64,000 nucleotides of DNA from Leptolyngbyaceae cyanobacterium HOT.MB2.61 (GTDB taxonomy: Bacteria > Cyanobacteriota > Cyanobacteriia > Leptolyngbyales > Leptolyngbyaceae), in NCBI GenBank assembly GCA_023511615.1, contig JAIMBL010000004.1, positions 11,478 through 75,477 on the forward strand. Reading direction: 5' to 3'. Below, one piece after another: positions 3,389-58,702 of the stretch. Below the pieces are notes generated by a model. That model was not told where the DNA came from, did not search any database, and was given only the letters and a program-made list of their open reading frames with translations. The first letter of the stretch is position 1. Each line of letters begins with the position of its first letter. Both the position numbers and the translations under genes were made by a program.

Positions 3389-3430
3389 TTCTTAATGTAT
3401 TGAACAATAGAATGTCTGTTCTTCTTTTGT

Positions 3431-3530
3431 AAGTAGCTGGGTGCAATTAAATTAAAGATGGTTTTGGGGGTGGAGGGGGTTTCACCCCCTGCCTGGGGGC
3501 AATGCCCCCACTCCCCTTTCTTCCAATTAA
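3431..3530. repeat. family A (short subfamily) dispersed GC-hairpin repeat
   Basis: AAGTAGCTGGGTGCAATTAAA...GAGGGGGTTTCACCCCCTGCCTGGGGGCAATGCCCCCACTCCCC. It carries two adjacent 6-bp G/C stem-loops. It is related to the copies at 54233-54414 and 62430-62506 (opposite orientation). Coordinates approximate. Confidence 0.7.
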
Positions 3531-3572
3531 TGATGTCTACCTACTTAGCAAAGTGAACGAATGGCAGCAATA

Positions 3573-42088: not shown

Positions 42089-42335
42089 GAGACCTCATCT
42101 GGAGTAGGGCTCTTCCGGTTTGCCAGTGAAAGAGCAGTACAAGATAACTGAAGATTACCTCCTGAAGTTCCATCCTACTCAATATCACTGATAGCGAATC
42201 AAGAATTCGATATAGACAACAGTCGATACCGATTCCTGCAAGGTCTGTATCAGTGGGACAGCTTTTGGGGCAGATGCCTGTGTAGTATTGATAAGTGGCA
42301 TTTTCTCCACTTATTGTCCAGCAGGTGTCTCAAGC

Positions 42336-44567
42336 ATGACCGCAATTTCTTCTAACCCTTCATCCATCAGCATTCCAACCTTTTGTGAAGGGGTTCAGTA
42401 CTTCAGTGAGTCGCTTCCTGGTTTTGAGACCTATGGTAAAAGTCCGGTGATTGTCGAGGGGAAGACCGCGATTGCCGACCCCACAGACCCCTCTGCTGCC
42501 TATCAAACCCTGCTCTACGCCGATGCTCTGCGCTATCTGATCCTGCAAATGACGGCCAGTAAGGCATCAGGACACCCTGGTGGGTTTGCCAGTCAGGCGG
42601 AGGTCTACGCGGCGCTGGTCATGCTGGGCTATAAGAACATCATTACGGAAGTGGGACACCACGCACCGGGTTTCTACGCGGCGATGTTTCTGGATCGATC
42701 ACTGGAGGATATGGGGATTGAAACCGTTCAGCAGTTGCGCGATCGCTTCCGTGAGCGGCACGGCCTGCTCGGTCATCTCTCCGGGCAAATTCCCGGATTG
42801 CTGGCCCCCGCGGGTCCCCTGGGACAGGGCCAGCATTTTGCGATGGCCGCCGCCCTCCTGCACCGCGATACTCTCTTTCCTTTCACCGTGGGCGATGGTG
42901 GCTTTGGTGAACCTTACGTCATGAGTGCGTTTGGGCATTTTCACACTGCTTATCCTGAGGTCACCAATTTTCTACCCATCCTCGTCTGGAATGGCTATTC
43001 CCAGGAACACCACAGCATGGTGTCCACCCAATCTAACGAGCGCATGATGGCCTACTGGCACGCCCATGGCTTCCAGGAAGTAGTGCTGATTGACGCCAAA
43101 GACTTCGATGACCAGGATCAGCCTGGAGCCTACGTAGATAGCACCCTGTTTTCTCTAGAGCAGCGGATGGAGTTTGTCAGAGCCGTTCTGGTTGGAGTCG
43201 ATGAGGCGGCTCGCTCGGCCCTGAATGGTAAACTCACGGCCCTGATTATCAAGCAACTGAAGGGAGCGGGCGTCCATGCCAGGGGAGCCAAGTCCCATAA
43301 CCTGTATGCCCAGCACACACTGGACAATCCAGACATTGTGGCAGCTTTGAAAGCCCGTGCCCTGACTCCGGCAGCATGGGAGTTGGTGCGGACGAATTGC
43401 GATCGCGCCGCTGGAGGTCCCGCCAGTAAAACCGTCGTTACTGAATTTGTCCTCTCCTTACCGGATCTGGGTTCATTGCCGCTGGAGGAATACCCCATTG
43501 GTGGCGATCCTAAAGTAGCAACCACCGCGATGGGGCGTCTGGTGGGAAAGGTCGGGCAAATAGATCCTGCCTACCTGGTCACCAATGCGGATGGCAACGA
43601 AGCTTCTGGTATTGCCAATATCAACCAGGCCCTCAAGATCAACCACCCCACCGAAGATGCCCTCTACAATCAAAAGCCTGGTGGCCAGGTCTACGAACCC
43701 CTGAGCGAAGATGCCTGCGCTGGACTCGCTGCTGGACTTGCTCTCATGGGTTCCCGTACCCTCTGGTGTTCCTATGAGTCCTTTGCTATCAACGGCTTAC
43801 CCATCTGGCAAACCGTCACTCAGGCAATGGCAGAATTGCGCCGCCCTACTCCTTCCACCATCACCCTGTTTACTGCCGGTGCCCTGGAGCAGGGGCGCAA
43901 CGGCTGGACCCACCAGCGTCCAGAAATTGAAGCATACTTTGCCGCTATGATGCGTAATGGCAACGTGTTTCCCCTCTTTCCTACCGATGCCAACAGCATT
44001 CAAGTTTGTTACGAGTGGGCATTAAGTACTCTAAATAAGGGAATTGTCATCACTGCCAGCAAGTCTCCCCTACCCATCCATACTACCTTTGAACAAACGC
44101 GCCAGGCATTGCAAGATGGTGCCATCGTTTTGCAAGAAAGCGAAAGCACGGAAAGCAAAGATGCCAAACGGGTCGTATTTGCAGTCGTAGGGGACATGAT
44201 TTTGAATCCGGTTCTGGAAGCCGCTTCTCATCTAGAAGCAGAAGGTCTATCTGTACGGGTCGTGTCTGTGGTGAGTCCACGCCGCCTCTACCGTCCTTCC
44301 GATGTGGCCTGGGATACCTGTGCCGAGCCAGATGCCGAATTCCTCAGCGATAAGGGATTTGAAGCGTTGTTCGGAGGCGATGCATTGATCGGTGTTACGG
44401 GAGGAGCCAGTCTGATGCTGGAACCGGTGATGCTGCGTAGCAATGCTAGACGGGACATCTTTGCCTGGAAGCGAGGTGAAACGACGGCAAACCCCGGTGA
44501 GTTAATGGCGTTCAATGGGATTACGGCTGAAGCACTGGCAAAGCGGGCACTGGAGTTGGTGCATTAA
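42336..44567 (+). CDS. transketolase-family thiamine-diphosphate-dependent enzyme (divergent)
   Basis: TK-like N-terminal motif ASGHPGGFASQAEVYAALVMLGY and the ThDP-binding motif GDGGFGEPYVMSAFGHFHTAYPEVTNFLPILVWNG (GDG-X-N type). The Pyr- and C-terminal-like domains are inferred from length only. Start set at ATG 42336. Confidence 0.65.
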   Translation: MTAISSNPSSISIPTFCEGVQYFSESLPGFETYGKSPVIVEGKTAIADPTDPSAAYQTLLYADALRYLILQMTASKASGHPGGFASQAEVYAALVMLGYKNIITEVGHHAPGFYAAMFLDRSLEDMGIETVQQLRDRFRERHGLLGHLSGQIPGLLAPAGPLGQGQHFAMAAALLHRDTLFPFTVGDGGFGEPYVMSAFGHFHTAYPEVTNFLPILVWNGYSQEHHSMVSTQSNERMMAYWHAHGFQEVVLIDAKDFDDQDQPGAYVDSTLFSLEQRMEFVRAVLVGVDEAARSALNGKLTALIIKQLKGAGVHARGAKSHNLYAQHTLDNPDIVAALKARALTPAAWELVRTNCDRAAGGPASKTVVTEFVLSLPDLGSLPLEEYPIGGDPKVATTAMGRLVGKVGQIDPAYLVTNADGNEASGIANINQALKINHPTEDALYNQKPGGQVYEPLSEDACAGLAAGLALMGSRTLWCSYESFAINGLPIWQTVTQAMAELRRPTPSTITLFTAGALEQGRNGWTHQRPEIEAYFAAMMRNGNVFPLFPTDANSIQVCYEWALSTLNKGIVITASKSPLPIHTTFEQTRQALQDGAIVLQESESTESKDAKRVVFAVVGDMILNPVLEAASHLEAEGLSVRVVSVVSPRRLYRPSDVAWDTCAEPDAEFLSDKGFEALFGGDALIGVTGGASLMLEPVMLRSNARRDIFAWKRGETTANPGELMAFNGITAEALAKRALELVH

Positions 44568-44956: not shown

Positions 44957-45355
44957 TTACTTATCGCCTTCAATAGCCGTCTTAGAAGTCGTTCCTAGAG
45001 ATTGACCATAGCCCTTCTCAGCAAAGTAGCCATTCAGCAGAGTGCTGGTAAAGGACAGAACCACAGGGCCTAGCAGAAATCCAAGCCATCCGTAAACGGA
45101 AAATCCAGGAACCAGCAACGAAGCCAACCAGAAACAGATGCCGTTCACAACCAGGGAGAAGGCTCCCAGTGTTAGAAAATTAACAGGCATCGAAAGGGTA
45201 GACAGAACAGGCTTAATGGTGCCATTGACTAATCCAATCGCCAGTGCTGCTACGATCGCCGCTGGAAATGTAGCCAGATTAGCTCCTGGAACAACCAGAT
45301 CAACTACCAGCAAGCTCAAAGCAGTAACCAGTGTCGTTAAAAAGAATCCCAACAT
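44957..45355 (-). CDS. phage-holin-family-4 / DUF360 membrane protein
   Basis: Four predicted TM helices. ALSLLVVDLVVPG..., AAIVAALAIGLVNGTIKPVL and LGAFSLVVNGICFWLASLLVPGF are typical of YvlD/DUF360 proteins. Confidence 0.75.
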   Translation of the reverse strand: MLGFFLTTLVTALSLLVVDLVVPGANLATFPAAIVAALAIGLVNGTIKPVLSTLSMPVNFLTLGAFSLVVNGICFWLASLLVPGFSVYGWLGFLLGPVVLSFTSTLLNGYFAEKGYGQSLGTTSKTAIEGDK

Positions 45356-46035: not shown

Positions 46036-46563
46036 CTAAAGCTTAGAGGCCGTCGATTGCGGCATCTCTCTCAACTGCTGCCGAATTTGTTGCTGCCTCT
46101 GCAACAAAGTTTGTTTAATTTCAACAAACTTGTTTTCCAACTCAGCCTTTTTCTCTTCGCTGAGAGAGCCGTACCAACCTCTGGCTTTTTCAGCTAGCTG
46201 CTGTTTCGCTTTAGCAAGACGCTCGCTAAATCTGGCGGTGAGTTTATTATCCAGTTCGGCCAGTTTCTTCCCTAACCAGGTGAACTGCTCCTTTAGCTTT
46301 TCTTCCTCTGCCCCAGCATCAAAAGAATTGGCAAAACTCTCTTTGGCGTCTTTGCCCTTCTCCTTCAACTCTTCAACAGTGACAGAAATGGCATCCTGAG
46401 CGATCGCCCGCATCTCCCCAGAACCTTCCTTCACCTCAGAAACTACTTGCGAGAAAGCCTGCCGCACAATTTCTTGAACTCGCTCTGCCCGTATTCTTTC
46501 CTGGTTTTTAAGCTTCTCGAACTCAGTCGCAATGCGGTCTTTTACAGAAATAACCTCAGTCAT
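46036..46563 (-). CDS. coiled-coil hypothetical protein (175 aa, Lys/Glu-rich)
   Basis: Uninterrupted ORF with ATG start and strongly helical, charged heptad-like sequence. No family was recognised. Confidence 0.6.
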   Translation of the reverse strand: MTEVISVKDRIATEFEKLKNQERIRAERVQEIVRQAFSQVVSEVKEGSGEMRAIAQDAISVTVEELKEKGKDAKESFANSFDAGAEEEKLKEQFTWLGKKLAELDNKLTARFSERLAKAKQQLAEKARGWYGSLSEEKKAELENKFVEIKQTLLQRQQQIRQQLREMPQSTASKL

Positions 46564-46653
46564 CGTTCTCCCTCCAAAGGACGTTACAAAACTACAAAAG
46601 TAAAGGCAAACTTAGAGGCTACAGGCTCTCCTTCCAGTTGCCTGCCGTCTGTA

Positions 46654-46905
46654 TCAAGCACTCACTTCAGCCTTCTTTTCCTTGCGTGCTTTACGTTGCT
46701 CAAGCACAACCTGAGAAAGCTCAGTCACCAGCAGTGTGGCAATTAGCCCATCATCAAGCCATCCCACAATTGGAAGTACATCCGTAGCGAGATCAACAGG
46801 GCTCAAAAGATAGAGCAAGCTACCAGCAACAACCAACCAACGGTATTTTGAATTTCTCAGAACTGCGCGATACAGCTTATAAAGCGGTTGAATCAGAAAC
46901 TTCAT
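46654..46905 (-). CDS. DUF1232 (YkvA-family) membrane protein
   Basis: YLLSPVDLATDVLPIVGWLDDGLIATL matches the DUF1232 signature (Y..SP.DLIPD.IP..G..DD). Confidence 0.8.
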   Translation of the reverse strand: MKFLIQPLYKLYRAVLRNSKYRWLVVAGSLLYLLSPVDLATDVLPIVGWLDDGLIATLLVTELSQVVLEQRKARKEKKAEVSA

Positions 46906-47130
46906 TTGGGTTGCCCTCCAACTACAAATTCATCGTTGCAGATTCGTCATGAAACCTCCGGTGTGGAAAACCCGCGCTTTTGTCGTAACAATCCCACTCA
47001 AGGTAGGGATGCCCGATCCAGTAGTGGAGAGAACCCTAAGGAGAGATGGAACGTTAGGATTGACCTGGTTTCGGGTATCTTTAGGCTTAGCAAATATCAC
47101 AAACCAGAAACTATCTTCAAACTATCTTCA

Positions 47131-48462
47131 ATGGATACTGAAGCCTCTGATTTACTGGATAAAATTCGTCAGCAATTTAACTGGTATTCTTACCCCTGGT
47201 ATCCCCTGGAATATTCGCCCAAAGGAGATGCCAATGCGCTATTCATCCATAATCTGATCACCCCTTACTATTTAAGAAATCAGCGTGTCATCGATACCAC
47301 AGGTAAGATCATCCTGGATGCTGGATGCGGCAGTGGATACACCTCATTGATTCTGGCCGCAGCAAATCCAGGTGCAACTATTGTAGGAATTGACTTATCA
47401 GAAGTTTCGATTCAAAAGGCTCGTGAGCGACTGAAGTACCATCAATTTGAGAATGTTGAATTTCATACCCTCTCAATTTATGATGTCCAAACCTTGGGTT
47501 TAACGTTTGATTACATTAACTGTGATGAAACACTTTACCTCCTGCCCGACCTTCACCAAGCGCTTCAGGTGTTGAAAGCTGTCCTCAAACCAGAAGGAAT
47601 AATTCGGGGAAACCTGCATAGCCTGTATACACGAACCCATATTTTTAGAGCTCAAAACCTCTTCAAACTGATGGGACTGATGGATTCAAATCCAGAGGAA
47701 ACTGAAATTGAAACAGCTTTACAAACCATTCAGTCATTAAAGGATGATGTTCCGCTCAAAGCTTTTATCTGGAGTTCTAAGTTTGAAGGAAAGGAACGTT
47801 ACGGGGCAGCACTTGTTAACTTATTGATGCAAGGAGATAAAGGCTTCACTATTCCCGATCTATTTGCTGCTCTAAAAACAACTGATCTGGAATTCATCAG
47901 CATGGTGAACTGGCGGCTGTGGGAACCACTGGATCTGTTTCAAGATCCAGAAAACCTACCTCTGTTTTGGGCAATGAATTTGCCGGATCTGCCGGATGAG
48001 TTGCGGCTGCATATTTTTGAGTTAATGTGTCCGGTCCATCGGCTGCTCGATTTTTGGTGTGGACATCCCAATGTGGCAAAGTCGGTTACGCCTGTTCAGC
48101 AGTGGCAAATGTCTGAATGGCAAAGGGCTAAGGTTTATTTGCACCCACAATTAGCTACGAAAAGTGTCTGGGAGGACCTTGTTTGCAGCATTAATGATCA
48201 CGATTCGTTTACAATCAGCCAGCACCTTTCTGCGCCGATCATGGCTCCTGTTACGCTGAACTCTCTCATGGCGAATTGTTTATTGCCCCTGTGGGAGGGA
48301 CCTCAACCTATTCAGGCATTGGTGAATCGCTGGCTTGCTGTTCAGCCCTTGGATCCCATTACTCTGGAGCCCAGAAGTGAAGTGCAGGCATTTGAGGAAA
48401 TCAAAAGTCTGTTGATGTATTTAGAGACCTATCTTTATGTGTTGTTAGAGCTGCCTGCTTAA
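47131..48462 (+). CDS. class I SAM-dependent methyltransferase with uncharacterised ~230-aa C-terminal domain (paralogue 1)
   Basis: SAM motif I ILDAGCGSGYTSLILA, motif II/post-I IVGIDLS and FDYINCDETLYLLPD. Start moved to ATG 47131 (MDTEASDLLDKIRQQF...) by alignment with the N-terminus of the downstream paralogue. The stop lies 3 nt before that paralogue's ATG. Confidence 0.8.
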   Translation: MDTEASDLLDKIRQQFNWYSYPWYPLEYSPKGDANALFIHNLITPYYLRNQRVIDTTGKIILDAGCGSGYTSLILAAANPGATIVGIDLSEVSIQKARERLKYHQFENVEFHTLSIYDVQTLGLTFDYINCDETLYLLPDLHQALQVLKAVLKPEGIIRGNLHSLYTRTHIFRAQNLFKLMGLMDSNPEETEIETALQTIQSLKDDVPLKAFIWSSKFEGKERYGAALVNLLMQGDKGFTIPDLFAALKTTDLEFISMVNWRLWEPLDLFQDPENLPLFWAMNLPDLPDELRLHIFELMCPVHRLLDFWCGHPNVAKSVTPVQQWQMSEWQRAKVYLHPQLATKSVWEDLVCSINDHDSFTISQHLSAPIMAPVTLNSLMANCLLPLWEGPQPIQALVNRWLAVQPLDPITLEPRSEVQAFEEIKSLLMYLETYLYVLLELPA

Positions 48463-48465
48463 TTT

Positions 48466-49815
48466 ATGAACAATCCAATCTCTGAGGGTTTAGAAAAAAT
48501 TCGCCTCCAGTTTGACCGGGCTCCTTATCCTGGATACCCCATTGACCAATCTCCAGAGGGAAATACCAGTCTGCTATTTATCCATAATTTGATCACGCCA
48601 TTTTATCTGAGGAATCAGCAAATTCTTGATGTCAGCAAAGCCACTATCCTGGATGCGGGCTGTGGTAACGGCTATACATCGTTAGCGCTGGCGATCGCCA
48701 ATCCCGGTGCAAAAATTGTTGGGGTGGATTTATCGAATACCTCAATTCAAATGGCACGGCAGCGAATGCAACACTTTGGCGTGAGCAATGCAGAATTTCA
48801 TACGCTGTCGATTGAACAGGTGCCTTCGTTAGGGATGGAATTTGACTACATCAATTGTGATGAAGTGTTGTATCTGGTGCCCAATTTGAACCTGGCATTG
48901 CGATCGCTCCAATCAGTGCTCAAGCCCAAGGGAATTCTGCGGGGAAACCTGCATAGCCTGTACCAGCGAGGCAGCTTCTTTCGAGCACAGCAACTTTTCA
49001 AATTGATGGGCCTGATGGATTCTAATCCAGGTGAAACGGAAGTGGCGATCGCGCTACAAACGATACAGGCATTAAAAGATGACGTTCCCCTCAAATCCCA
49101 AACCTGGAACTCGGAATTTGAAGGGGCCGTTGCTTATGGCAAAACTGTAACTAATTACCTGCTTCAAGGAGACAAAGGTTTCACTATTCCTGATCTGTTT
49201 GCTGCTTTAAAGACAGCTGATCTAGAATTCATCAGCATGGTGAACTGGCAGCTATGGGACTTGATGGAGCTGTTCAAAGACCCCAATCACCTGCCACCAT
49301 TCTGGCAAACAAATTTACCCAATCTTCCAATCGAAACCCGCCTGCATATGTTTGAACTGATGTATCCCGCTCACCGACTGCTTGACTTTTGGTGTGGCCA
49401 TCCGGGGCAGGCGAATTCTTTCATTCCTCCCCAACAATGGCAACCTGTTGACTGGCAAAATGCGATAGTACACCTCCATCCCCAGCTTAGAACGGCGACA
49501 GTACGGGAGGATTTAATTCACTGCATACAGCAGAGAAGCCCCTTCAGCATCAGTCGCTACCTGTCTGCCCTGACACTCAAACCAGTCCGATTACCCCCTC
49601 TTATAGCTGCTTGCTTACTGCCACTGTGGGAAGGAGCACAACCCGTAATGGCACTGGTCGAACGGCTACTTAAAATCAAACCTCTACACCCCGTTACCCT
49701 GGAGCCAATGACAGCAGAAATGGCCTTGAGCGAAATCATCAAAACCTTGACCAGTTTAGAAGCATTCCTTTACGTGCTTCTGGAAATGAAAGCGACAGGC
49801 AGTGGGGTTAAGTAG
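48466..49815 (+). CDS. class I SAM-dependent methyltransferase with uncharacterised C-terminal domain (paralogue 2)
   Basis: Collinear with 47131-48462 over the whole length, with more than half of positions identical by eye. Shared motifs are ILDAGCGNGYTSLALA, IVGVDLS, GDKGFTIPDLFAALKTADLEFISMVNW, HRLLDFWCGHP and CLLPLWEG. Confidence 0.85.
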   Translation: MNNPISEGLEKIRLQFDRAPYPGYPIDQSPEGNTSLLFIHNLITPFYLRNQQILDVSKATILDAGCGNGYTSLALAIANPGAKIVGVDLSNTSIQMARQRMQHFGVSNAEFHTLSIEQVPSLGMEFDYINCDEVLYLVPNLNLALRSLQSVLKPKGILRGNLHSLYQRGSFFRAQQLFKLMGLMDSNPGETEVAIALQTIQALKDDVPLKSQTWNSEFEGAVAYGKTVTNYLLQGDKGFTIPDLFAALKTADLEFISMVNWQLWDLMELFKDPNHLPPFWQTNLPNLPIETRLHMFELMYPAHRLLDFWCGHPGQANSFIPPQQWQPVDWQNAIVHLHPQLRTATVREDLIHCIQQRSPFSISRYLSALTLKPVRLPPLIAACLLPLWEGAQPVMALVERLLKIKPLHPVTLEPMTAEMALSEIIKTLTSLEAFLYVLLEMKATGSGVK

Positions 49816-49868
49816 CCATCATAAAGGGCGGACAGCGTCACAAATGAAAATAGGGGAAGCGAATATAT

Positions 49869-52800
49869 CTACTTGTACCCAACCGCCCAGATATTTAGAT
49901 TTCCCTTTTGAATATTGACTTTGCTAAAGCCTGCCTGTTTTAGCTTCTGGCTCAAACTTTCACTGGTAAAAGCGGTGCGGTGGGCCATAAAGTGATTGCC
50001 TCCAGCGATCGCCGTTCTTAACCCATACAGAATATCAATTGCAGAAATCGGTCCTGCAGGAGATTCGTACAGTGGTTCCTCTAAATTTCCTGTTGCCACA
50101 TGCTCTGCCACTTCCTGAATATCAGGGACGCTAATTAACACTCGTCCACCAGGTTTTAAGACCCGATAAAACTCTCCCAGGGCAATTGGAACTTCATGGG
50201 CATAAACATGTTCCAGATTGTGAGAAGAGTAGACCGCATCCATTGACTCGTTGGGTACGGCACTCATATCAGTAATTGAGCCTACGATATCGGGTTGCAC
50301 TGCGGGATTGAGATCGAGCCGAACTTCACGCCATTCGGATGTACGAAATGGTTTTGGCAGAGCTTCGGGATCGTAAGGCCCGCACCCCACATGGAGAATT
50401 AATTTAGTTGCCGTCGTTTGCATATTCAACCATTCCTGAGAAGTCTTTTCCTGTTGTAATAATTGTTCCTGCACAATTTGACGATAAAACTGTTCTAATC
50501 CAGCAACACAGGCAACATCTTCAAACAGGTTTGACTGGCACTCCCAAATTCGTTGCGAAATTGCCCGTCTCCAGCCGGGTTCCAGCCCTAGTTTGACGGC
50601 AATATCGATGTATTCAGCTTCGGTCTGGGCGATGGTGTCAGTTACTCCCAGCATACGCAGGATACCCACGGACTGACGACCCCGCATCAGTTCCCCAGGG
50701 CAGCACACAACTGGGAGACCAGCAGCGATCGCTTCCAGCGTTGTGTGTCCCCCCGAAAAGCCGAGGGTATCGAGAAAGATATCCGTACAGGCCAGTAAAC
50801 TGGCATACCCTTGCAAATCCTGACCGGGCAGAAACACGCAATAATCCTCCATCCTTAACCCGGCATCAGCAAAGGCCCGCTGCAACCGCTGGCGAAACTG
50901 CTGCATTAATCGAGGGTTCACACTCCCCCTTGGAGTTGAGCGCAAAACAAACACGATTTGAGCATCAGGCACCCGACGCGCAATCTCGACCAGTAAATAA
51001 TCATGCTGAGGTAGATACTTAAACATCAACTGGCAAGAAAGATACAACACGGCATCTTCCCGCAGCCCAAAATCGGTTCGTCTTTTGGTGGCTTCAGGAA
51101 ACACGGGTTTAGGGTAGCAAAGTCCGATATTGGGCAAACGCACCAATTGCTCACTGTAGTGTTCCTGGGCATTGTCAGGCTCCATCAATTCACTGGACAG
51201 GAAGTAGTCGATAGTCGGAAGCCCGGACGTGACTGGATGTCCCCAGGCACTACACTGAACCGGAGCCAGGCGTAAGGATGCGATCGCCTTTATTCTCACC
51301 CGTGTTCCCAGAGCCAAAAACACCAGAATATGTAGCTGATCAGCCCGAATTCGCTCACCGATTGCGTTTGGATCATTTGGCAACTGGTAAAAGACATCAC
51401 TTAGTAGTCGGAACTGCTCAGTTCGTAGATCTGTGTTTGCATCAATGCTGTAACAATAAATTTCAAACTGACTGCGATCGTGGTTCTTCAGCCAGCCAAC
51501 TGCCCAGCGGGTTTCGCTGTTATTTCCTAAAGATTCGGCAATGTAGCCAATTCGGATTTTGCCGTTCTTCCCTATAAGGGGCATCGCCATCGGCTGAACC
51601 AGAGATGGGTAACGCTCTGCCATTAGTTGATGTCGCAGATGGCCATAAATCCTTTGGATCGAGCGATCATTAAACCCCTGGTAGGAAATATAGAAATTTG
51701 TGAAGTTCTCCAGCGCCTGAAAATTAATTGACTTGCCCTGACTGCGAGCTTCTTCTACCTGCCGACTCAGGCGGTTACAGCCCTCCAGGTAACGCTGGCG
51801 GTAAAAAGCTATCTCTTCGGTTGACTGGTAAAGTATTGGCAGAACAAGGTCGGGCAAAATTTGCAAGAAAGCGTCTTCCGAGCGTAACTGGGCAGCCCTT
51901 TGGGCACATTGAATCACCTGCTCTGTCAGTCCGCACTGGAAGTAGCTGTCATACAACACCAAACACTCACTAACGGTTTCCAACTGCTCAATCGAAAAGT
52001 GAGCTTGAAATTGTTCAATCGCTTCCTCATGATCGTTCTGAAAGTAAAGCGAGTAAATCGTACAGAACTTTTCTCGTTTGAAATCGCCTTCTATTCGGTA
52101 AGCGTCAGCTAGTCGTTGCCAAATATTCGGGTTCTGCCTGTCCAGGTTGATGGCCTTGTGATATTCCGCAATAGCAGCCTGCCGTTGCTCCCGCTTCATC
52201 AGCACATCGCCCAGGTTTACATAGCTGGTACTCCAGTCTGGTGCCGCTGCGATCGCCTGTCGAAACAGTTTTTCAGCTTCATCCAAGGTTCCCTGGTGTA
52301 ACCGCAATTCTCCCAGACTGTTGAGGGCATTCGCGTAATTCGGGCTCAGTGCGATCGCCTGCTGATAGGCCTCTGTCGCTTCTTCAAGCTGTCCTATACG
52401 CTCCAAAGCCAGGCCCAAAATCTGGCAGGCCACTGGATTGTGAGGATTCAGGTTAAGTGCAGTCCGCAATGCATCGAGAGCCAGCTCATTCTGACCAAGC
52501 AGATAGTGGACCATCCCCAGATTTTGCCAGACTTCCCCATTGCTCCTGTCGTAGAGCAGTATTTTTTGATACGCTTCCTCTGCCGCGTCCAATTGTCCTT
52601 CAACCACTCGCTGGGCGGCTTCGTTGCGCAGACTTTCCAGCTTTGTAAATTGCTGGTGCTGCTCTAAGGAGGAAATTGCGTGAATCGCATTCAACTCCCG
52701 CCGCTGGGCATCAGAGGCGATCGCACCAGAAGAAACCTCCCTATCCCAACCCAAGAGTAACAGACCGCTGCCAGAGGCAGGATATCCTCCCTGTTTGGTC

Positions 52801-53414
52801 AAATCCAGCAACAACTGCGCCTGGGGATAGGCGGTCAAAAAATCCCAGGCAGCCTGCCGCACCATTCCCAACTCTGCCTGGGCCAGAACGATCAGTGCTT
52901 GTTCCGCCAGAAATGGTTTTGCCAGCATCAGAGCCAGGAACTGGGAGCGATAATCGGATGCGCCGTTGTAAAAATAAACACCAATTCGGTCGTCTAAACC
53001 TGTGGCACTCAAATCGGCAAAAAAATCTTCAGTGTCCTGAGCGCAAAAAAGCACCTGCTCTTCCAAATGAAAAGTGGTCAAATTCTCTAGCAGGCGATCA
53101 ACCATTGCTCCCTGGGGGTCTAGCCGGGCTGGGCTCTCAACCGCGTAGGCCATGCGATCGCCATGCCCCCGCAAAGCCGCAATGACGCTAACACCCTCCA
53201 GGCAGCCAATTTCACAGTAAACTTCTCCTGCGGCCATGCAGCCGACTGCTTCATTGAGCAGTGGCATGATGGCAGCGTTTGGCACAGTCCCAGATTGGAC
53301 TAATCCAGATTGGGCTAACGATAGCTCAAACTGAGCGGATGCAGGATAAGCCGCAGACACTCCCGAATTTTGGTACAGGTCGGGCAAACGGTTGATCAAT
53401 CGTTGAAAGTTCAT
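49869..53414 (-). CDS. four-module fusion protein: methyltransferase-like domain / TPR array / GT41 (O-GlcNAc-transferase-like) glycosyltransferase / SAM methyltransferase (type 11)
   Basis: 1181 aa. Residues ~45-225 form a class-I MTase-like fold (VYCEIGCLEGVS...VYFYNGASDY). Residues ~265-445 hold 5-6 TPRs. Residues ~615-975 form the GT41 domain (IRIGYIAESLGNNSETRW, APVQCSAWGHPVTSGLPTIDYFLS, FLDTLGFSGGHTTLEAIAAGLPVV). Residues ~1000-1181 form a Methyltransf_11-like domain (LHVGCGPY..., VYSSHNLEHV, VLKPGGRVLISVPD). Confidence 0.85.
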   Translation of the reverse strand: MNFQRLINRLPDLYQNSGVSAAYPASAQFELSLAQSGLVQSGTVPNAAIMPLLNEAVGCMAAGEVYCEIGCLEGVSVIAALRGHGDRMAYAVESPARLDPQGAMVDRLLENLTTFHLEEQVLFCAQDTEDFFADLSATGLDDRIGVYFYNGASDYRSQFLALMLAKPFLAEQALIVLAQAELGMVRQAAWDFLTAYPQAQLLLDLTKQGGYPASGSGLLLLGWDREVSSGAIASDAQRRELNAIHAISSLEQHQQFTKLESLRNEAAQRVVEGQLDAAEEAYQKILLYDRSNGEVWQNLGMVHYLLGQNELALDALRTALNLNPHNPVACQILGLALERIGQLEEATEAYQQAIALSPNYANALNSLGELRLHQGTLDEAEKLFRQAIAAAPDWSTSYVNLGDVLMKREQRQAAIAEYHKAINLDRQNPNIWQRLADAYRIEGDFKREKFCTIYSLYFQNDHEEAIEQFQAHFSIEQLETVSECLVLYDSYFQCGLTEQVIQCAQRAAQLRSEDAFLQILPDLVLPILYQSTEEIAFYRQRYLEGCNRLSRQVEEARSQGKSINFQALENFTNFYISYQGFNDRSIQRIYGHLRHQLMAERYPSLVQPMAMPLIGKNGKIRIGYIAESLGNNSETRWAVGWLKNHDRSQFEIYCYSIDANTDLRTEQFRLLSDVFYQLPNDPNAIGERIRADQLHILVFLALGTRVRIKAIASLRLAPVQCSAWGHPVTSGLPTIDYFLSSELMEPDNAQEHYSEQLVRLPNIGLCYPKPVFPEATKRRTDFGLREDAVLYLSCQLMFKYLPQHDYLLVEIARRVPDAQIVFVLRSTPRGSVNPRLMQQFRQRLQRAFADAGLRMEDYCVFLPGQDLQGYASLLACTDIFLDTLGFSGGHTTLEAIAAGLPVVCCPGELMRGRQSVGILRMLGVTDTIAQTEAEYIDIAVKLGLEPGWRRAISQRIWECQSNLFEDVACVAGLEQFYRQIVQEQLLQQEKTSQEWLNMQTTATKLILHVGCGPYDPEALPKPFRTSEWREVRLDLNPAVQPDIVGSITDMSAVPNESMDAVYSSHNLEHVYAHEVPIALGEFYRVLKPGGRVLISVPDIQEVAEHVATGNLEEPLYESPAGPISAIDILYGLRTAIAGGNHFMAHRTAFTSESLSQKLKQAGFSKVNIQKGNLNIWAVGYK

Positions 53415-53580
53415 AGTTCCAGGAAATTGCTCAAATCCATAATTCCCACGAATCGAGCCACATCCTCTTCATTCGGATCCAAAAAAATTTCCCAGGGGTG
53501 ATATGAAACCATAGCGGGCGGGGTACGTTACATCCAGGAGTTAGAACCAAATACCCCGCATCTTAAAGGAGAAACCTCTC

Positions 53581-54123
53581 ATGAAATCTGAATTCAAGGC
53601 TAAGTTCATCCAGCACCTGGCTCAAAAGAAAAAGCCAGAAGAAGGCTTCACTCTGATTGAACTGCTCGTCGTTATTATCATCATTGGTATTCTGGCTGCA
53701 ATCGCGCTGCCCTCCTTCCTGAACCAGGCGAACAAGGCTAAGGAATCTGAGTCCAAGCAGTATGTTGGTTCTATGAACCGCACCCAGCAAGCTTACTTCC
53801 TGGAGAAAAATACCTTTGCCAGCTCAATTTCTCTCCTGGGTCTGGGTATCAACACTGACAGCGTGAACTATACCTACGCTATCACCGGTCAAACCAACAC
53901 CGCTGCTACGAACCTGTCCTATCCCAAGAATACCAACACCCTGCGGGCACACACGGGTGGTGTACAGGTCGCCCTCACCGCTCAGAACGAAGCAACCACT
54001 CTGGCGATTCTGTGTCAGAGTCCCAAGCCTACCGCTGGCAATGCAGGTGGTGTTAAATTTGGTGCGGCTAACGCATCGGGTGGTCCTTCCTGCGATAACA
54101 ACTTCGAGCCTCTGCTCAACTAA
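53581..54123 (+). CDS. pilA: type IV pilin, PilA1-like major pilin precursor
   Basis: 22-aa basic leader MKSEFKAKFIQHLAQKKKPEEG followed by FTLIELLVVIIIIGILAAIALPSF (class III signal, Phe+1, Glu+5). AAGGAG lies 8 nt upstream of the ATG, and two Cys sit near the C-terminus (disulfide loop). Confidence 0.92.
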   Translation: MKSEFKAKFIQHLAQKKKPEEGFTLIELLVVIIIIGILAAIALPSFLNQANKAKESESKQYVGSMNRTQQAYFLEKNTFASSISLLGLGINTDSVNYTYAITGQTNTAATNLSYPKNTNTLRAHTGGVQVALTAQNEATTLAILCQSPKPTAGNAGGVKFGAANASGGPSCDNNFEPLLN

Positions 54124-54171
54124 AGAGGGCATTATCACCTCCTTTGCAGTGATTTTGGTCTAGAACCTGGC

Positions 54172-54208
54172 GAGAGTGGGTAGAGTTTCTATCCACTCTC
54201 ACTGTTTT
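54172..54208 (+). terminator. rho-independent terminator downstream of pilA
   Basis: 13-bp stem GAGAGTGGGTAGA / TCTATCCACTCTC (one G-U pair) with a 3-nt loop, followed by ACTGTTTTG. It starts 48 nt after the pilA stop. Confidence 0.65.
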
Positions 54209-54232
54209 GCGGGTGACTCTTGCCATAGGTAA

Positions 54233-54414
54233 GGAAGAAAGGGGAGTAGGGGTGTTCCCCTAGTCAGGGGGCTTCGCCCCCTCCGCCTCCAAAACCATCT
54301 TTAATTGAATGGCGTTGCTGATTCAAGGGATGAATTTAGAGTTGGATGAATTGAAACTTCGTTCCAATTTATCCTGCTATTCAGCAACATCCATTTAATT
54401 GCACCCAGCTACTT
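54233..54414. repeat. family A (short subfamily) repeat carrying an extra ~90-bp hairpin insert
   Basis: GGAAGAAAGGGGAGTAGGGGTGTTCCCCTAGTCAGGGGGCTTCGCCCCCTCCGCCTCCAAAACCATCTTTAATTGAAT ... CCATTTAATTGCACCCAGCTACTT. The ends match the reverse complement of 3431-3530. The insert carries the inverted repeat GTTGCTGATTC/CTATTCAGCAAC. Confidence 0.65.
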
Positions 54415-54475
54415 AAGTATTTTTGGCAAATACGGGAATTCTTACTTAGAATTCACATGAACTTATACCATAGCG

Positions 54476-56701
54476 ATGATGATTGAGGTATCTCCTGTTG
54501 AAGTGGTTGGCTGGCGACAGCAGGCAGAACAATGTTTGCTGGCAGGAAATTATGCCCAGGCAGCAGACCTTTACCAGCGGCTAATTGAAGCGGAACCTGA
54601 AACCAAAATGCACTGCTGGCATCTGGGGTTAGCGTTGCTTTTGCAGGAGCAGGAGGCTGAGGCCCAAACGGTGTGGATGCTGGCAATGGTGGAAGGAAAC
54701 AGCAGCCAGGTGCAGCAGTGGACGGCTGAATTGGTTTCCGTTTTAGAGGCTGAGGCTGAACAGCGGGAAGAAAGCCATGACTATCCAACGGCCTGGGCCA
54801 TTCGCCAGCACATCCGGGAAATTGCTCCAGAGAATTTGACCAACCTGCTCCATCTGATGCAACTTTCGATTGAGTCAGGTACCTTTTCCGCCGAAAATCT
54901 AGCTAACCTGGGGGTGATTCCCCTGCTGCATGGGGCTACCAGAGATACGGTAGATTCTGATCTGCTTTTACAAAGCTTAAAGCGCCTTCTTGCCATTGCT
55001 CCCCTGGAACCGATTACCCTAGATTTTGCAGCCGCCTGTCTGAAGCACCGTTCCCAAGTTCTGGAGTTTGTGCTGGTGCTGATGCACCGGGCGATCGAAA
55101 TTGGCAATAACATGGGGCAACCACTGGTGGCGGTTGATTACGCAAAACGATGCCTGGAGGCGCTACCCAATAATTTGTCGATTCTGGGTCACCTGTCCCA
55201 CTTCTACCAGAATGCCAATCATCACACGGAGGGAATTGAGGCCGCGCGGCAGTATTGCACGATCGCCCGCGCATTGCCTGACCAGGTGTTTGGGGCGTTT
55301 TTGATGCTGCGATCGCTGCTGCGAGCCGGAGGGTACTGGGATAGTATTTTTCCGATTTTTGAACATCAGGATGTCCTGATTGAAGAGTTGGTCAATACTC
55401 AGGTAGAGCCGCTCGACCAAGCGACGGTCTTTCAATTGACGACTTCCACCTTCTGCCAGCCTTACATTCGCGATTCCCTGGTAAAAAATCGGTTAAACCA
55501 GAACCGTCTGATGCAAGTGTGTCAATCCAGTGTGCAAACCTATTCCAGAGAACTGGTTGATCGGTTTCAGCAGGGTTTTGCCACTCGCTCTACCCGGCGG
55601 GATGGGACGCACCCCCTCCGGATTGGCTACGTTTCCCACTGTATGAGGCGGCATTCCGTTGGCTGGCTCAGCCGCTGGTTGTTCAATTACCACAACCGGG
55701 AGCGGTTTCATCTCTACGGCTACTTCTGGAATTCTCAGGAGCTTGTGACAGATAGCTTGCAGCGCTGGTTTATGGAGCGGGTGCACCACCCCCGGATTCT
55801 GGGACGGGATAGCCAGGAAATTGCCAACCGAATTTTTGAAGATGAAATTGACATCCTGGTTGACCTGGATAGCATTACGGCAGACATCATCTGTGAGGTG
55901 ATGATGCTAAAACCTGCGCCCGTGCAGGTGACCTGGCTGGGTTGGGATGCTTCTGGAATTCCAGCGATTGACTATTACATCGCTGATCCCTACGTGTTGC
56001 CAGACTACGCAGAGAATCACTATGCCGAGAAAATCTGGCGCTTACCCCAGACCTACATTGCGGTTGATGGGTTCGAGGTTGGAGTGCCAACGCTGCGCCG
56101 CGAAGATTTGGACATCCCAGGCGATGCGGTGATTTACTGGAGTGGGCAAAGTGCGTACAAGCGCCATCCCAATACGGTGCGATCGCAGTTACAAATCATC
56201 AAAGCCGTACCCAACAGCTATTTCCTGATTAAGGGAATTAACGATGAAGGATCCATTCAGCAGTACTTTTTGCAAATGGCCGCAGAAATAGGAGTGGATT
56301 CCTCTCGATTAAGATTTTTGCCCGATGTAGCAGAAGAGCAAACCCACCGGGCCAATCTGGGAATTGCCGATGTGGTGCTGGACACCTACCCCTACAATGG
56401 AGCAACCACAACACTAGAAACCTTATGGATGGGAATTCCGATGGTGACGCGAGTGGGGGAACATTTTTCCAGCCGTAACAGCTACACCATGATGGTTAAC
56501 GCAGGGATTTCAGAAGGGATCGCCTGGACAGATGAGGAATACGTGGAATGGGGCGTGGGCCTTGGGAAAGACCCTCAATTGCGTCAACAAATTGCCTGGA
56601 AGCTATGGAAATCTCGTGCAACAGCTCCCCTATGGAATGCCAAGGCATTTACCCAGCAAATGGAGAACGCCTATGAAAAGATGTGGGAAATGGGCCGTTA
56701 A
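54476..56701 (+). CDS. TPR-repeat / GT41 family O-linked GlcNAc-transferase-like protein (OgtA-like)
   Basis: 741 aa with an N-terminal TPR-like helical region. GT41 motifs: LRIGYVSHCMRRHSVGWL, APVQVTWLGWDASGIPAIDYYIADPYVLP, VLDTYPYNGATTTLETLWMGIPMVT. The second half is collinear with the GT41 module of the 1181-aa protein. Confidence 0.85.
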   Translation: MMIEVSPVEVVGWRQQAEQCLLAGNYAQAADLYQRLIEAEPETKMHCWHLGLALLLQEQEAEAQTVWMLAMVEGNSSQVQQWTAELVSVLEAEAEQREESHDYPTAWAIRQHIREIAPENLTNLLHLMQLSIESGTFSAENLANLGVIPLLHGATRDTVDSDLLLQSLKRLLAIAPLEPITLDFAAACLKHRSQVLEFVLVLMHRAIEIGNNMGQPLVAVDYAKRCLEALPNNLSILGHLSHFYQNANHHTEGIEAARQYCTIARALPDQVFGAFLMLRSLLRAGGYWDSIFPIFEHQDVLIEELVNTQVEPLDQATVFQLTTSTFCQPYIRDSLVKNRLNQNRLMQVCQSSVQTYSRELVDRFQQGFATRSTRRDGTHPLRIGYVSHCMRRHSVGWLSRWLFNYHNRERFHLYGYFWNSQELVTDSLQRWFMERVHHPRILGRDSQEIANRIFEDEIDILVDLDSITADIICEVMMLKPAPVQVTWLGWDASGIPAIDYYIADPYVLPDYAENHYAEKIWRLPQTYIAVDGFEVGVPTLRREDLDIPGDAVIYWSGQSAYKRHPNTVRSQLQIIKAVPNSYFLIKGINDEGSIQQYFLQMAAEIGVDSSRLRFLPDVAEEQTHRANLGIADVVLDTYPYNGATTTLETLWMGIPMVTRVGEHFSSRNSYTMMVNAGISEGIAWTDEEYVEWGVGLGKDPQLRQQIAWKLWKSRATAPLWNAKAFTQQMENAYEKMWEMGR

Positions 56702-57659
56702 TGCCATCGAGTCTATTGTTTCCGTAATCTGTTCTCAATCAAGGGGGCGTCGGATTTTAGCGATCGCCCTTCTGGCAATGGTGGTAGGTTGTTCTGCGTC
56801 TACTCAAAAGTCTCAGTCGGTAGATTCCAGAAGCACCCAATCTCAGGCATCCCCTTCATCTGTGCCCAGTCCATCTCCAGAAGCGGTACCAGCTTCTCCA
56901 GTAAAAAACTCCAGAAGGGGGAACCCCAAAGCGGTAGCTCTCAATAACCAGGCCGTTGAAAAACTCTCCAAGGGAGACCTGAATGGGGCCTTGAGTACCT
57001 TTAATCAGGCAATTCAGACTGATGCACGTCTGGCAGAAGCTTACCTGGGGCGTGGGATTGCTTACTCTGGCTTAAGAAAACGCCAGGCAGCCATTCAGAA
57101 TTACAACCAGGCCATTAAGCTAGATCCTGGCTTTGCCGCAGCCTATCTCAACCGGGCCGATGAGTACGCGACAATCGGTCGCCGGGAGCAGGCGATCGCC
57201 GACTTTAGCAAAGCGGCCCAACTCTTCTCGCAACGGGGTGATCAAGCCAATGCTCGCCTTGCTCAATCCCGCATCGAAGACCTCAAAACTCCCCTACCCG
57301 CCGTATCAATTGCTTCCAATCCCTCTCCCAGTAGTGCCTCTGAGCCTGTTGCCAGCAGCCCTCAAATGGCTCTGGCAATGCACCTGAGAAAAGCTGGAGC
57401 CAGGATGTATGGCACCTACTGGTGTTCTGTTTGCAACTGGCAACGCGAACAGTTTGGTGAAGCAGCCTTCAGCCAGATCACCTATGTAGAATGCGATCCT
57501 GGTGGTTCCAATCCTCAGCCTGACCTGTGCAACCAGGCAAACATTGCCGCCTACCCAACCTGGGAAATCAATGGTCGCCTTTACCCGCCGGGCGGTTATC
57601 CTTTACGGGAGCTTGCTAATCTTTCAGGTTATCAGGGTTCTCATAACTTTGGGGGGTAG
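56673..57659 (+). CDS. lipoprotein with TPR repeats and C-terminal VKOR-type thioredoxin-like domain
   Basis: Lipobox LLAMVVGC, a Ser/Pro linker and 3 TPRs (AEAYLGRGIAYSGL..., AAAYLNRADEYATIG...). The C-terminus MYGTYWCSVCNWQREQFGEAAFSQITYVECDPGG...C..ANIAAYPTWEINGRLY closely resembles the Trx-like domain fused to cyanobacterial VKOR. Start ATG 56673 overlaps the upstream gene end by 29 nt. The track ORF begins at 56532. Confidence 0.75.
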   Translation: MKRCGKWAVNAIESIVSVICSQSRGRRILAIALLAMVVGCSASTQKSQSVDSRSTQSQASPSSVPSPSPEAVPASPVKNSRRGNPKAVALNNQAVEKLSKGDLNGALSTFNQAIQTDARLAEAYLGRGIAYSGLRKRQAAIQNYNQAIKLDPGFAAAYLNRADEYATIGRREQAIADFSKAAQLFSQRGDQANARLAQSRIEDLKTPLPAVSIASNPSPSSASEPVASSPQMALAMHLRKAGARMYGTYWCSVCNWQREQFGEAAFSQITYVECDPGGSNPQPDLCNQANIAAYPTWEINGRLYPPGGYPLRELANLSGYQGSHNFGG

Positions 57660-57778
57660 AAGGGACTCAGGCGATGGACTAGAGGCAATGGACGACAGGC
57701 GATTGTTTCCTCCTGCTTACTGCTCTTCCCCCTACCACCTTTGCCCCCCCCTCTGCCATCGCCAACAAAAGTATTCAA

Positions 57779-58702
57779 ATGATAAAGAACACTAAAAGCC
57801 TGAAACAGGTTTCCTGGCTGACAAAGATTCTCCTGCTCGTGCTACTTGGTATTGCAGTCGCGCTTACGGTGTTGGGGATTGAATCCCTCAATCGGGCGGG
57901 AACTCTACGCGTCTTTGATCGGTTTGTGGCGGATCTGGGCAGTCAGTATCGGCAGTGGTTTCAACAGCAAAATCCAATAGCAAACTTACCGCTGCTGCTG
58001 CTGCTGTCCTTTACTGGAGGATTGGTTGCCAGTATTTCGCCTTGCATTTTGTCTCTGTTGCCTGTCAACCTCAGTTACATCGGCACCCGTGAAATTACTT
58101 CTCGGCGGGATGCCTTTTCTAAGGCGGGGGCTTTTGTTTTGGGAGTTGTTACGGTCCTGAGTCTGTTTGGTTTATTTTCTTCCCTGGCGGCGATCGTCCT
58201 GATTCGGTTTCGTGGCTACTTCCATGTCCTGGTCGGGATGATCATTCTGGTCATGGGGTTGAGTCTGGCTGGAATTATTTGCTTACCTCTGCCACCGCAG
58301 CGTTTTGTGCAGGTTGCGGGGCCATTAGAGGAGAAGCATCGAAAGACTCCTGCTTTGTTAGTTGGTAAAATCCGCGCCTTGCTTGCGGGTCCCTATGGCG
58401 TTGGGCTCACGTTTGCACTGGTAAGCTCGCCCTGCACCAGCCCGGTTATGTTTGCAGTGCTGGCAGCGGGGGCAGCAACGGGTTCTCAAGGTTTAGGCGT
58501 ACTCACAATGGTTAGTTACGCTCTGGGTTATACTGCAATTATTTTTCTGGCCAGTTTGTTTACGGGGCTGGCAAAACAAACTCGTGGCTTACTGAAGCAT
58601 TCAGAAACCATTGTTCGTCTTGCCAGTCTGGTACTGTTACTCGTGGGTGGTTTCTATGTAGTGAATGGCAGTCGCTGGATTATCGCCACTTTCAGGCTGT
58701 AG
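57779..58702 (+). CDS. ccdA: cytochrome c biogenesis / thiol:disulfide electron transporter CcdA (DsbD family)
   Basis: Multi-pass membrane protein with the two conserved Cys motifs LVASISPCILSLLPVNLSYIG and ALVSSPCTSPV. Confidence 0.85.
   Translation: MIKNTKSLKQVSWLTKILLLVLLGIAVALTVLGIESLNRAGTLRVFDRFVADLGSQYRQWFQQQNPIANLPLLLLLSFTGGLVASISPCILSLLPVNLSYIGTREITSRRDAFSKAGAFVLGVVTVLSLFGLFSSLAAIVLIRFRGYFHVLVGMIILVMGLSLAGIICLPLPPQRFVQVAGPLEEKHRKTPALLVGKIRALLAGPYGVGLTFALVSSPCTSPVMFAVLAAGAATGSQGLGVLTMVSYALGYTAIIFLASLFTGLAKQTRGLLKHSETIVRLASLVLLLVGGFYVVNGSRWIIATFRL

Follow-up and report, generated by a model that had tools for sequence, protein, structure and literature searches.

A conserved pilA neighbourhood with GT41 glycosyltransferase and methyltransferase genes in a Leptolyngbyaceae cyanobacterium: a probable locus for modification of the major type IV pilin

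A stretch of 64,000 nucleotides from Leptolyngbyaceae cyanobacterium HOT.MB2.61 (contig JAIMBL010000004.1, positions 11,478 to 75,477), referred to below as the window, was analysed around pilA, the gene for its major type IV pilin. The region around this gene is probably a conserved locus for the post-translational modification of the pilin. It is built of four families, namely pilA itself, a GT41 glycosyltransferase of the Ogt/OgtA type, a second GT41 protein flanked by methyltransferase domains, and a methyltransferase resembling the protein-lysine methyltransferases (PKMT-like). The need for a pilA-adjacent GT41 enzyme in PilA glycosylation is already published, and one protein of the window holds that position; the new elements are two families that recur at the locus, namely the PKMT-like methyltransferases linked to pilA and the second GT41 proteins with their flanking methyltransferase domains. 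The observations consist of gene content, domain and fold assignments, and the conservation of catalytic residues and of the neighbourhood. In cyanobacteria, type IV pili drive motility, phototaxis, DNA uptake, flocculation and biofilm control, and modifications of the pilin are needed for pilus assembly.

Five consecutive open reading frames (ORFs) make up the island, and the coordinates and strands originally given for them agree with the ORF listing and translation. They encode two tandem methyltransferases, named here MT-A and MT-B, a protein of 1181 residues (aa) named BIG, a PilA1-type prepilin, and a 741-aa GT41 protein named GT741. In the list, SAM stands for S-adenosylmethionine and TPR for tetratricopeptide repeat.

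47131 to 48462, + strand: MT-A, PKMT-like SAM methyltransferase of 443 aa, tandem paralogue 1 (Methyltransf_31, E 4e-25)
48466 to 49815, + strand: MT-B, PKMT-like SAM methyltransferase of 449 aa, tandem paralogue 2 (Methyltransf_31, E 3e-26)
49869 to 53414, - strand: BIG, 1181 aa, with O-methyltransferase-like domain, TPR array, GT41 and Methyltransf_11
49905 to 50417, - strand: C-terminal Methyltransf_11 domain of BIG, aa ~1000-1170, with HVGCGP at aa 1008 (Pfam E 1e-9)
50460 to 51617, - strand: GT41 catalytic domain of BIG, aa ~600-985, with Lys799, GGHTT and Asn632
52725 to 53414, - strand: N-terminal O-methyltransferase-like domain of BIG, aa 1-230, with the SAM motif EIGCxxG at aa 68
53581 to 54123, + strand: pilA, PilA1-type type IV major prepilin of 180 aa, with N_methyl and Pilin_GH (E 8e-26)
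54476 to 56701, + strand: GT741, Ogt/OgtA-type GT41 protein of 741 aa, with GT41 domain PF13844 (E 1e-51)

The BIG gene converges on that of MT-B across a gap of 53 nt and diverges from pilA across 166 nt.

The conservation of this neighbourhood was assessed by a metagenome scan seeded on the methyltransferase family alone (80 loci), which avoids bias to pilA or GT41, with homologues of the pilin, GT741 and BIG placed in the loci by tblastn. A locus was taken as informative when the sequence 3' of the methyltransferase gene extended for 700 nt or more (n=59), and 4 kb or more was required for the count of the full order (n=37). It was found that a PilA1-type pilin gene comes next downstream, on the same strand, in 55 of the 59 informative loci, with a median gap of 129 nt, and that the order methyltransferase, pilA, GT741-like gene is present in 34 of 37, with gaps of ~130 nt and ~200 nt. 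The co-occurrence of pilA, GT41 and methyltransferase genes, put forward as a check of the original prediction, is therefore strongly borne out. The same cassette was found in 12 genome loci seeded on BIG, belonging to the Oscillatoriales, Leptolyngbyaceae and Nostocales. A PilA1-type pilin gene lies within 10 kb in 37 of the 80 loci seeded on the BIG family, and 7 of 36 cassettes from the methyltransferase-seeded scan have a BIG-like gene at their flank (chance ~1% by a rough estimate). MT-A and MT-B are the most pilA-linked and the least described component of the island. An origin of the neighbourhood by chance, or by hitch-hiking in a variable region, could appeal to the mobile-element-like repeat in the spacer downstream of pilA and to the variation of gene order between lineages, but it is contradicted by the counts of 55/59 and 34/37, for which the seeding was independent of pilA, and by the recurrence of the arrangement across three orders, and can be given practically no credence.

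The closest complete genome, Leptothermofonsia sp. ETS-13 (locus L001), has the same gene order as the window, and in both BIG is reversed between the methyltransferase pair and pilA, which looks like a derived arrangement. The Nostocales loci L162-L165 contain genes for a methyltransferase (442 aa), a pilin (183 aa) and a GT41 protein (742 aa), on which the gene for a 1013-aa TPR–GT41 protein converges, followed by a large GT2/GT4 glycosyltransferase gene; with the same four families as the window, they look like the ancestral order. The methyltransferase gene is duplicated in tandem not only in the window but also in L128, L134, L150, L152 and L153. Fusions were seen in other lineages: the PKMT-like methyltransferase is joined to a PhyH-type dioxygenase in some (P0153, P0195, P0201, P0222; L161), and the GT741 orthologue to an FkbM methyltransferase in several (L161; P0470, P0473, P0478, P0486), such Ogt–FkbM fusions being encoded 3' of type IV pilA; in L161 (4178-10450) an Ogt–FkbM fusion and a methyltransferase–PhyH fusion flank the pilin gene. 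The pairing of GT41 with methyltransferases beside pilin genes thus recurs with differing methyltransferase families.

On sequence grounds GT741 is an Ogt/OgtA-type enzyme, its orthology being assigned by position and family membership. It matches human OGT (E 5e-48), SPINDLY (E 1e-45) and XcOGT (E 3e-36); the catalytic lysine is kept, Lys562 in QSAYK aligning with QLYK of human OGT as the equivalent of K842, and His393 is the equivalent of human OGT His498. TPR arrays had been attributed to both GT41 proteins of the window. This holds for BIG, in which TPRs are strong at residues ~270-450 (TPR_1 and TPR_2, E ~1e-25), and was overstated for GT741, where a single region, residues 12-65, gives sub-threshold matches (E ~1e-4) and residues 66-370 have no Pfam match. 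In many genomes a relative of GT741 with 42-61% identity is encoded immediately 3' of pilA and on its strand; the Nostocales protein P0484 has 55% identity at 100% coverage and the same position beside pilA. The pilA-adjacent position was found in the window, in the methyltransferase-seeded loci and in the Nostocales locus L162.

Genetic evidence on the GT41 enzyme at this position comes from two other cyanobacteria, and its extension to the window would be by analogy. In Nostoc punctiforme, OgtA is Npun_F0677 and pilA is Npun_F0676. Loss of ogtA there leads to no PilA accumulation, as related at second hand in PMC9306852. Synechococcus elongatus Ogt (Synpcc7942_0051), which combines TPRs with GT41, adjoins the pilA genes; its catalytic Lys445 is needed for the normal size of PilA, for its reactivity for N-acetylglucosamine (GlcNAc) and for normal piliation, and the GlcNAc modification of PilA is lost in both the ogt mutant and the K445A allele (Suban et al. 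2022, PMC9306852). In the same work ogt–pilin adjacency was reported for 77 of 201 cyanobacterial genomes, and a 2025 review states that ogt adjoins pilA in many cyanobacteria and takes part in PilA glycosylation (PMC12288463). In view of these two papers, the premise of the original prediction that the enzymes modifying cyanobacterial pilins are not defined is out of date. In Synechocystis the pilA2–sll1696 locus also promotes glycosylation of PilA1 (PMC8546353).

MT-A and MT-B are 62% identical over 443 aa. By Pfam, residues ~57-160 of each form a class I SAM-methyltransferase core, in which the SAM-binding GxGxG is present as LDAGCG at residue 62, and some 280 more residues have no Pfam match; from NCBIfam both received generic methyltransferase matches only, far under the cut-offs. 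The family, of ~440 aa, is conserved over its whole length with a mean column identity of 65% (alignment A2). The MT-A ORF may begin at TTG 46888, the ATG at 47131 being favoured by the family alignment.

The two proteins had been treated as generic SAM methyltransferases, and SAM methyltransferases they are, but with the fold of protein-lysine methyltransferases and a strong link to pilA. The AlphaFold model of MT-B (pLDDT 83, pTM 0.79), compared by Foldseek with the PDB, gave full-length matches solely to Rv2067c of Mycobacterium tuberculosis (E 5e-19, TM 0.65-0.68, ~430 columns) and to Rickettsia PKMT1 and PKMT2 (E 1e-16 to 1e-14). The alignments to the entries 8hkr, 5do0, 5dnk, 5doo and 5dpl cover 427-442 columns with TMq of 0.59-0.68, and the remaining matches are confined to the methyltransferase core (TM <=0.37, E ~1e-8). 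The family profile A2 also ranks Rv2067c (8hkr) first (E 1e-19), over positions 61-303 and so reaching past the core, with PKMT2 (1e-14) and PKMT1 (5e-14) third and fourth after one match to the methyltransferase core only. The modelled fold makes the MT-A/B family a candidate pilin lysine methyltransferase, and lysine methylation of the pilin would be the best-supported activity for these proteins. A PKMT-like methyltransferase family adjoining pilA appears to be undescribed: literature searches for a cyanobacterial pilin methyltransferase turned up none. In Synechocystis the lysine at the C-terminus of PilA1 was reported in 2011 to be trimethylated (cited in PMC12288463), and no enzyme is assigned to this modification in the literature searched.

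The same fold bears on the possibility that the substrate of MT-A and MT-B, as of the methyltransferase domains of BIG, is not a protein side chain but the glycan of the pilin, which would then contain O-methyl sugars. Ten monosaccharides, each of either 160 or 174 Da, are attached to the CT pilin of Microcystis (PMC12397347); these masses lie one CH2 apart and would equal a deoxyhexose with one or two methyls, a reading that follows from our own arithmetic and is not that of the authors. Methyltransferases of several families adjoin the pilin-linked GT41 genes or are fused with them, and the pilin of the window has no C-terminal lysine, both of which suit methylation of the glycan. The full-length fold and the profile are nevertheless specific to protein lysine methyltransferases, including their C-terminal substrate-binding domain, and sugar and small-molecule O-methyltransferases match the core of MT-B only, so that glycan methylation by MT-A and MT-B is rather improbable.

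In BIG both of the methyltransferase modules originally proposed were recovered, the C-terminal one as Methyltransf_11 by Pfam and the N-terminal one as a weak match (Methyltransf_24, E 2e-4) backed by an O-methyltransferase fold. The AlphaFold model of the N-terminal domain (pLDDT 83) has COMT/CCoAOMT-type O-methyltransferases as its Foldseek matches, among them the sugar O-methyltransferases MeT1 and SpnH (E ~1e-7, TM ~0.6). The GT41 domain is recognised by Pfam (E 7e-36), and human OGT and SPINDLY are also matched. The BIG family (alignment A1) is large in filamentous cyanobacteria; a form of ~1010 aa comprises the N-terminal domain, the TPRs and GT41, and the C-terminal Methyltransf_11 is confined to the form of ~1180 aa. 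The catalytic lysine, Lys799 in BIG, is invariant in 39 of 39 family sequences and the GGHTT motif is kept. The site equivalent to His498 of human OGT holds His in 20 of the 39 members overall, and in the forms of ~1160-1220 aa it holds Asn in 10 of 12, with Thr and His in the other two. A role of BIG in the addition of sugar and/or the O-methylation of sugars would fit this architecture. Two proteins of 1877-1922 aa (P0002 and P0003) were considered as fusions of MT-A/B with BIG and rejected; each joins a BIG-type protein in tandem to a second TPR–GT41 unit.

The prepilin has the traits of a type IVa major pilin, that is, a leader ending in Gly (MKSEFKAKFIQHLAQKKKPEEG, followed by FTLIELL, with cleavage between G22 and F23), FTLIE, a hydrophobic helix, Pilin_GH, and a C-terminal pair of cysteines (Cys145 and Cys171). 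At positions 92 and 94 of the prepilin of the window, positions 70 and 72 of the mature protein, Thr/Ser is conserved in 71-98% of sequences. These mature positions presumably fall inside the 67-75 glycopeptide reported for Synechocystis PilA1. A C-terminal Lys is present in 58 of 98 non-redundant PilA1-type pilins (L001-L160), far over the background frequency of Lys. It occurs in 42 of 62 methyltransferase-adjacent pilins (68%) against 16 of 36 others (44%; Fisher p 0.03, uncorrected for phylogeny), and the methyltransferase-adjacent pilins carry one more Lys on average, again with phylogeny uncorrected. The C-terminal lysine is the sole methyl-lysine site documented in any cyanobacterial pilin in the literature searched. 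A pilin lysine specific to the methyltransferase-bearing loci was looked for and rejected, the weak C-terminal enrichment and the one extra Lys on average alone being seen.

The sequences on either side of pilA contain the following elements.

53496 to 53530, + strand: SigF-type pilA promoter, GGGTGATATGAAA, 12-nt spacer, GGGTACGTTA
54172 to 54209, + strand: intrinsic terminator after pilA, 13-bp stem (54172-54200) and T-run, the best in the region
54226 to 54415, no strand assigned: short dispersed repeat, resembling a miniature inverted-repeat transposable element (MITE), in the pilA–GT741 spacer
54423 to 54452, + strand: sigma-70-like promoter candidate 5' of the GT741 gene, TTGGCA, 18-nt spacer, TAGAAT

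About 90 related loci (L001-L160) share, 5' of pilA, an A/T tract, GGGTGATATGAAA, a spacer of 12-13 nt and TGGGTAAGTTA, and in the window GGGTAC at 53521-53526 stands in register with this motif. The -12 element matches that of the Synechocystis pilA1 SigF promoter, GGGTAAG at -12 (PMC2532724), and the promoter is of the SigF type on this basis. After TGGGTAAGTTA there is a conserved 5' untranslated region (UTR), AGGAGTTAGAAATCAAGCATCCC, and then a ribosome-binding site (53496-53580 in the window). An Rfam scan of 46500-57800 gave no match, and the conserved 5' UTR is therefore not a known RNA family. The strong terminator noted earlier after pilA was found again. Of the MITE placed in the spacer, part was confirmed: a repeat of ~100 nt (54226-54315) is ~85% identical to a second, reverse-strand copy at ~3430-3540, and the copy beside pilA has an extra segment of ~57 nt with an imperfect 23-nt inverted repeat (54314-54388). 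The promoter candidate of GT741 has 10 of 12 consensus matches, the best in the region, and is a consensus match only.

That pilA has a promoter and a terminator of its own is one of the points that would suit another explanation, in which the main substrates of the GT41 enzymes and methyltransferases are not the major pilin but, for example, minor pilins, other proteins of the pilus machinery, other surface proteins or many cytoplasmic proteins, and the genes lie near pilA only through co-regulation with motility. In N. punctiforme, ogtA depends most on SigJ and pilA strictly on SigF; the S. elongatus ogt mutant is altered beyond piliation, including a merely partial response to the biofilm inhibitor; and the rickettsial PKMTs methylate several outer-membrane proteins. 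On the other hand, the order methyltransferase, pilA, GT41, with its short gaps of ~130 nt and ~200 nt, is kept across orders, and loss of Ogt directly changes the mass and GlcNAc reactivity of PilA, which renders this explanation unlikely.

Modification of the major pilin, the preferred reading, may be pictured as follows. Transcription of pilA would begin at its own SigF-type promoter, proceed at a high level and stop at its own terminator, and the modifying enzymes would be expressed separately. No obvious N-terminal signal sequence was seen in them by eye, so that they are probably cytoplasmic, and they would act on the prepilin before or during export. GT741 would move a monosaccharide from a nucleotide sugar to Ser/Thr of the globular domain of the pilin, the conserved Thr92 and Ser94 being candidate sites; BIG would add more sugar and/or O-methylate the sugar via its O-methyltransferase-like domains; and MT-A and MT-B would N-methylate lysines of the pilin. 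The original claim that the island modifies the adjacent pilin has gained from the strong conservation of the neighbourhood and from the published genetics of the GT41 position; we infer the substrates of BIG and of MT-A and MT-B, the identity of the sugar, the residues modified and the cellular compartment. It is tempting to speculate further that the ~440-aa PKMT-like family is the pilin lysine methyltransferase of cyanobacteria and forms, with Ogt and the second GT41 protein, a modular three-enzyme system for O-glycosylation, sugar O-methylation and lysine N-methylation, a proposal that we advance tentatively and hold to be somewhat doubtful in its full extent. Such a system would tailor the surface chemistry of the type IV pilus, with lineage add-ons in the form of fusions to the PhyH hydroxylase and the FkbM methyltransferase.

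Several points weigh against this reading. Since pilA has its own promoter and terminator, the link is one of conserved neighbourhood and not of an operon, as had been said from the start, and in the window the opposite-strand BIG gene separates MT-A and MT-B from pilA. Many pilA–ogt loci, including most of the Nostocales among the BIG-seeded genome loci, have no methyltransferase, which makes the latter accessory. The pilin of the window ends ...FEPLLN, with Asn in place of a C-terminal Lys, as the earlier translation already had it, and 20 of the 62 methyltransferase-adjacent pilins also lack this lysine; the p values for enrichment, 0.03 and 0.005, are uncorrected for phylogeny, and in an alignment of 99 pilins no lysine position sets the methyltransferase-adjacent ones apart. 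The transferase activity of BIG is uncertain because Asn632 replaces His498 of human OGT, and modification in the cytoplasm of a domain that ends in the periplasm lacks a topological explanation. CpcM, a cyanobacterial phycobiliprotein asparagine methyltransferase, resembles MT-A and MT-B when compared by layout.

Other genes were noted around the island. On its 3' side lie a TPR protein with a CxxC thioredoxin-like C-terminus (56742-57659) and a DsbD/CcdA-type membrane protein (57779-58702); these were left out of the module because their synteny is found only in the closest genome, Leptothermofonsia (L001), and a tie between them and the pilin disulfide would be pure speculation. The ORF at 42288-44567 (759 aa) has weak phosphoketolase-family matches only (XFP, E 5e-13). 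At 44957-45355 lies the gene of a small membrane protein assigned to the 'phage holin 4_2' family.

Found beside pilA in more than 90% of the informative loci, and with a fold like that of the enzymes for which OmpB and AtaA are substrates, the methyltransferase family offers a candidate that can be tested directly, and pilin, if the assignment is true, would be a new substrate class for PKMT-type enzymes. From the repeated association of GT41 enzymes with O-methyltransferase domains, it is predicted that cyanobacterial pilins bear glycans of methylated monosaccharides.

Among known systems, Ogt/OgtA is like GT741 in having a GT41 domain with the catalytic Lys, no obvious signal peptide (judged by eye), and a gene that follows the one for the major pilin immediately and on the same strand; the window differs from it in that the TPRs are barely detectable in GT741 and that a repeat element and a separate promoter candidate stand between pilA and the GT741 gene. 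Rickettsia PKMT1 and PKMT2 methylate OmpB, and the related KmtA of Acinetobacter methylates the fibre adhesin AtaA; neither the PKMT-type enzymes nor Rv2067c carry a signal peptide, and they act on exported proteins, either of the surface or secreted. MT-A and MT-B share with these enzymes the class I core and a large C-terminal domain in a full-length fold match, but their sequence identity to them is 15-16%, PKMT1 and PKMT2 are longer (535-554 aa against 449 aa of MT-B), pilin is not among the known substrates, and tight linkage to the substrate gene is not described for the PKMT/Rv2067c family.

CpcM (Sll0487) is a cyanobacterial enzyme that N-methylates phycobiliproteins on asparagine and lysine. 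Its methyltransferase domain occupies residues 58-155 and a long C-terminal region follows, which is the layout of MT-A and MT-B as well, and CpcM was itself modelled on PKMT2. MT-A and MT-B might on that account be its orthologues, their adjacency to pilA being without meaning for the pilin. CpcM is shorter (402 aa against 443-449 aa) and is expected in all cyanobacteria that bear phycobilisomes, whereas the MT-A/B family is patchy and pilA-linked. Among the best 120 MT-B homologues the named cyanobacteria are all Oscillatoriales or Leptolyngbyaceae, with no Nostocales, Chroococcales or Synechococcales named, most being unnamed and one labelled Verrucomicrobia. The MT-A/B family is moreover duplicated in tandem in several lineages and fused to PhyH in others, and the termini of the Synechocystis protein, taken from published primers (MLSNSD..., ...TLGNS), differ from the family consensus. 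Orthology with CpcM is thus very improbable. A search for CpcM itself among the distant relatives of MT-B, by representatives at 50% identity and by a cluster look-up, gave no informative names.

The CT-pilus cluster of Microcystis, with the pilin BH695_0841, the O-GlcNAc transferase BH695_0839 and the FkbM methyltransferase BH695_0838 (PMC12397347), resembles the island in placing a GT41 enzyme and a methyltransferase beside the gene of a heavily O-glycosylated pilin. Its pilin is beta-rich and not of type IV, and its methyltransferase is of the FkbM family, in contrast to the PKMT-like, COMT-like and Methyltransf_11 types of the window. The FliB (flagellin methylase) islands of Salmonella and other Enterobacteriaceae belong to an unrelated system, that of a flagellum and not a pilus; compared by gene arrangement, they offer a likeness to the present locus in that a lysine methyltransferase is encoded beside the gene of its own filament subunit.

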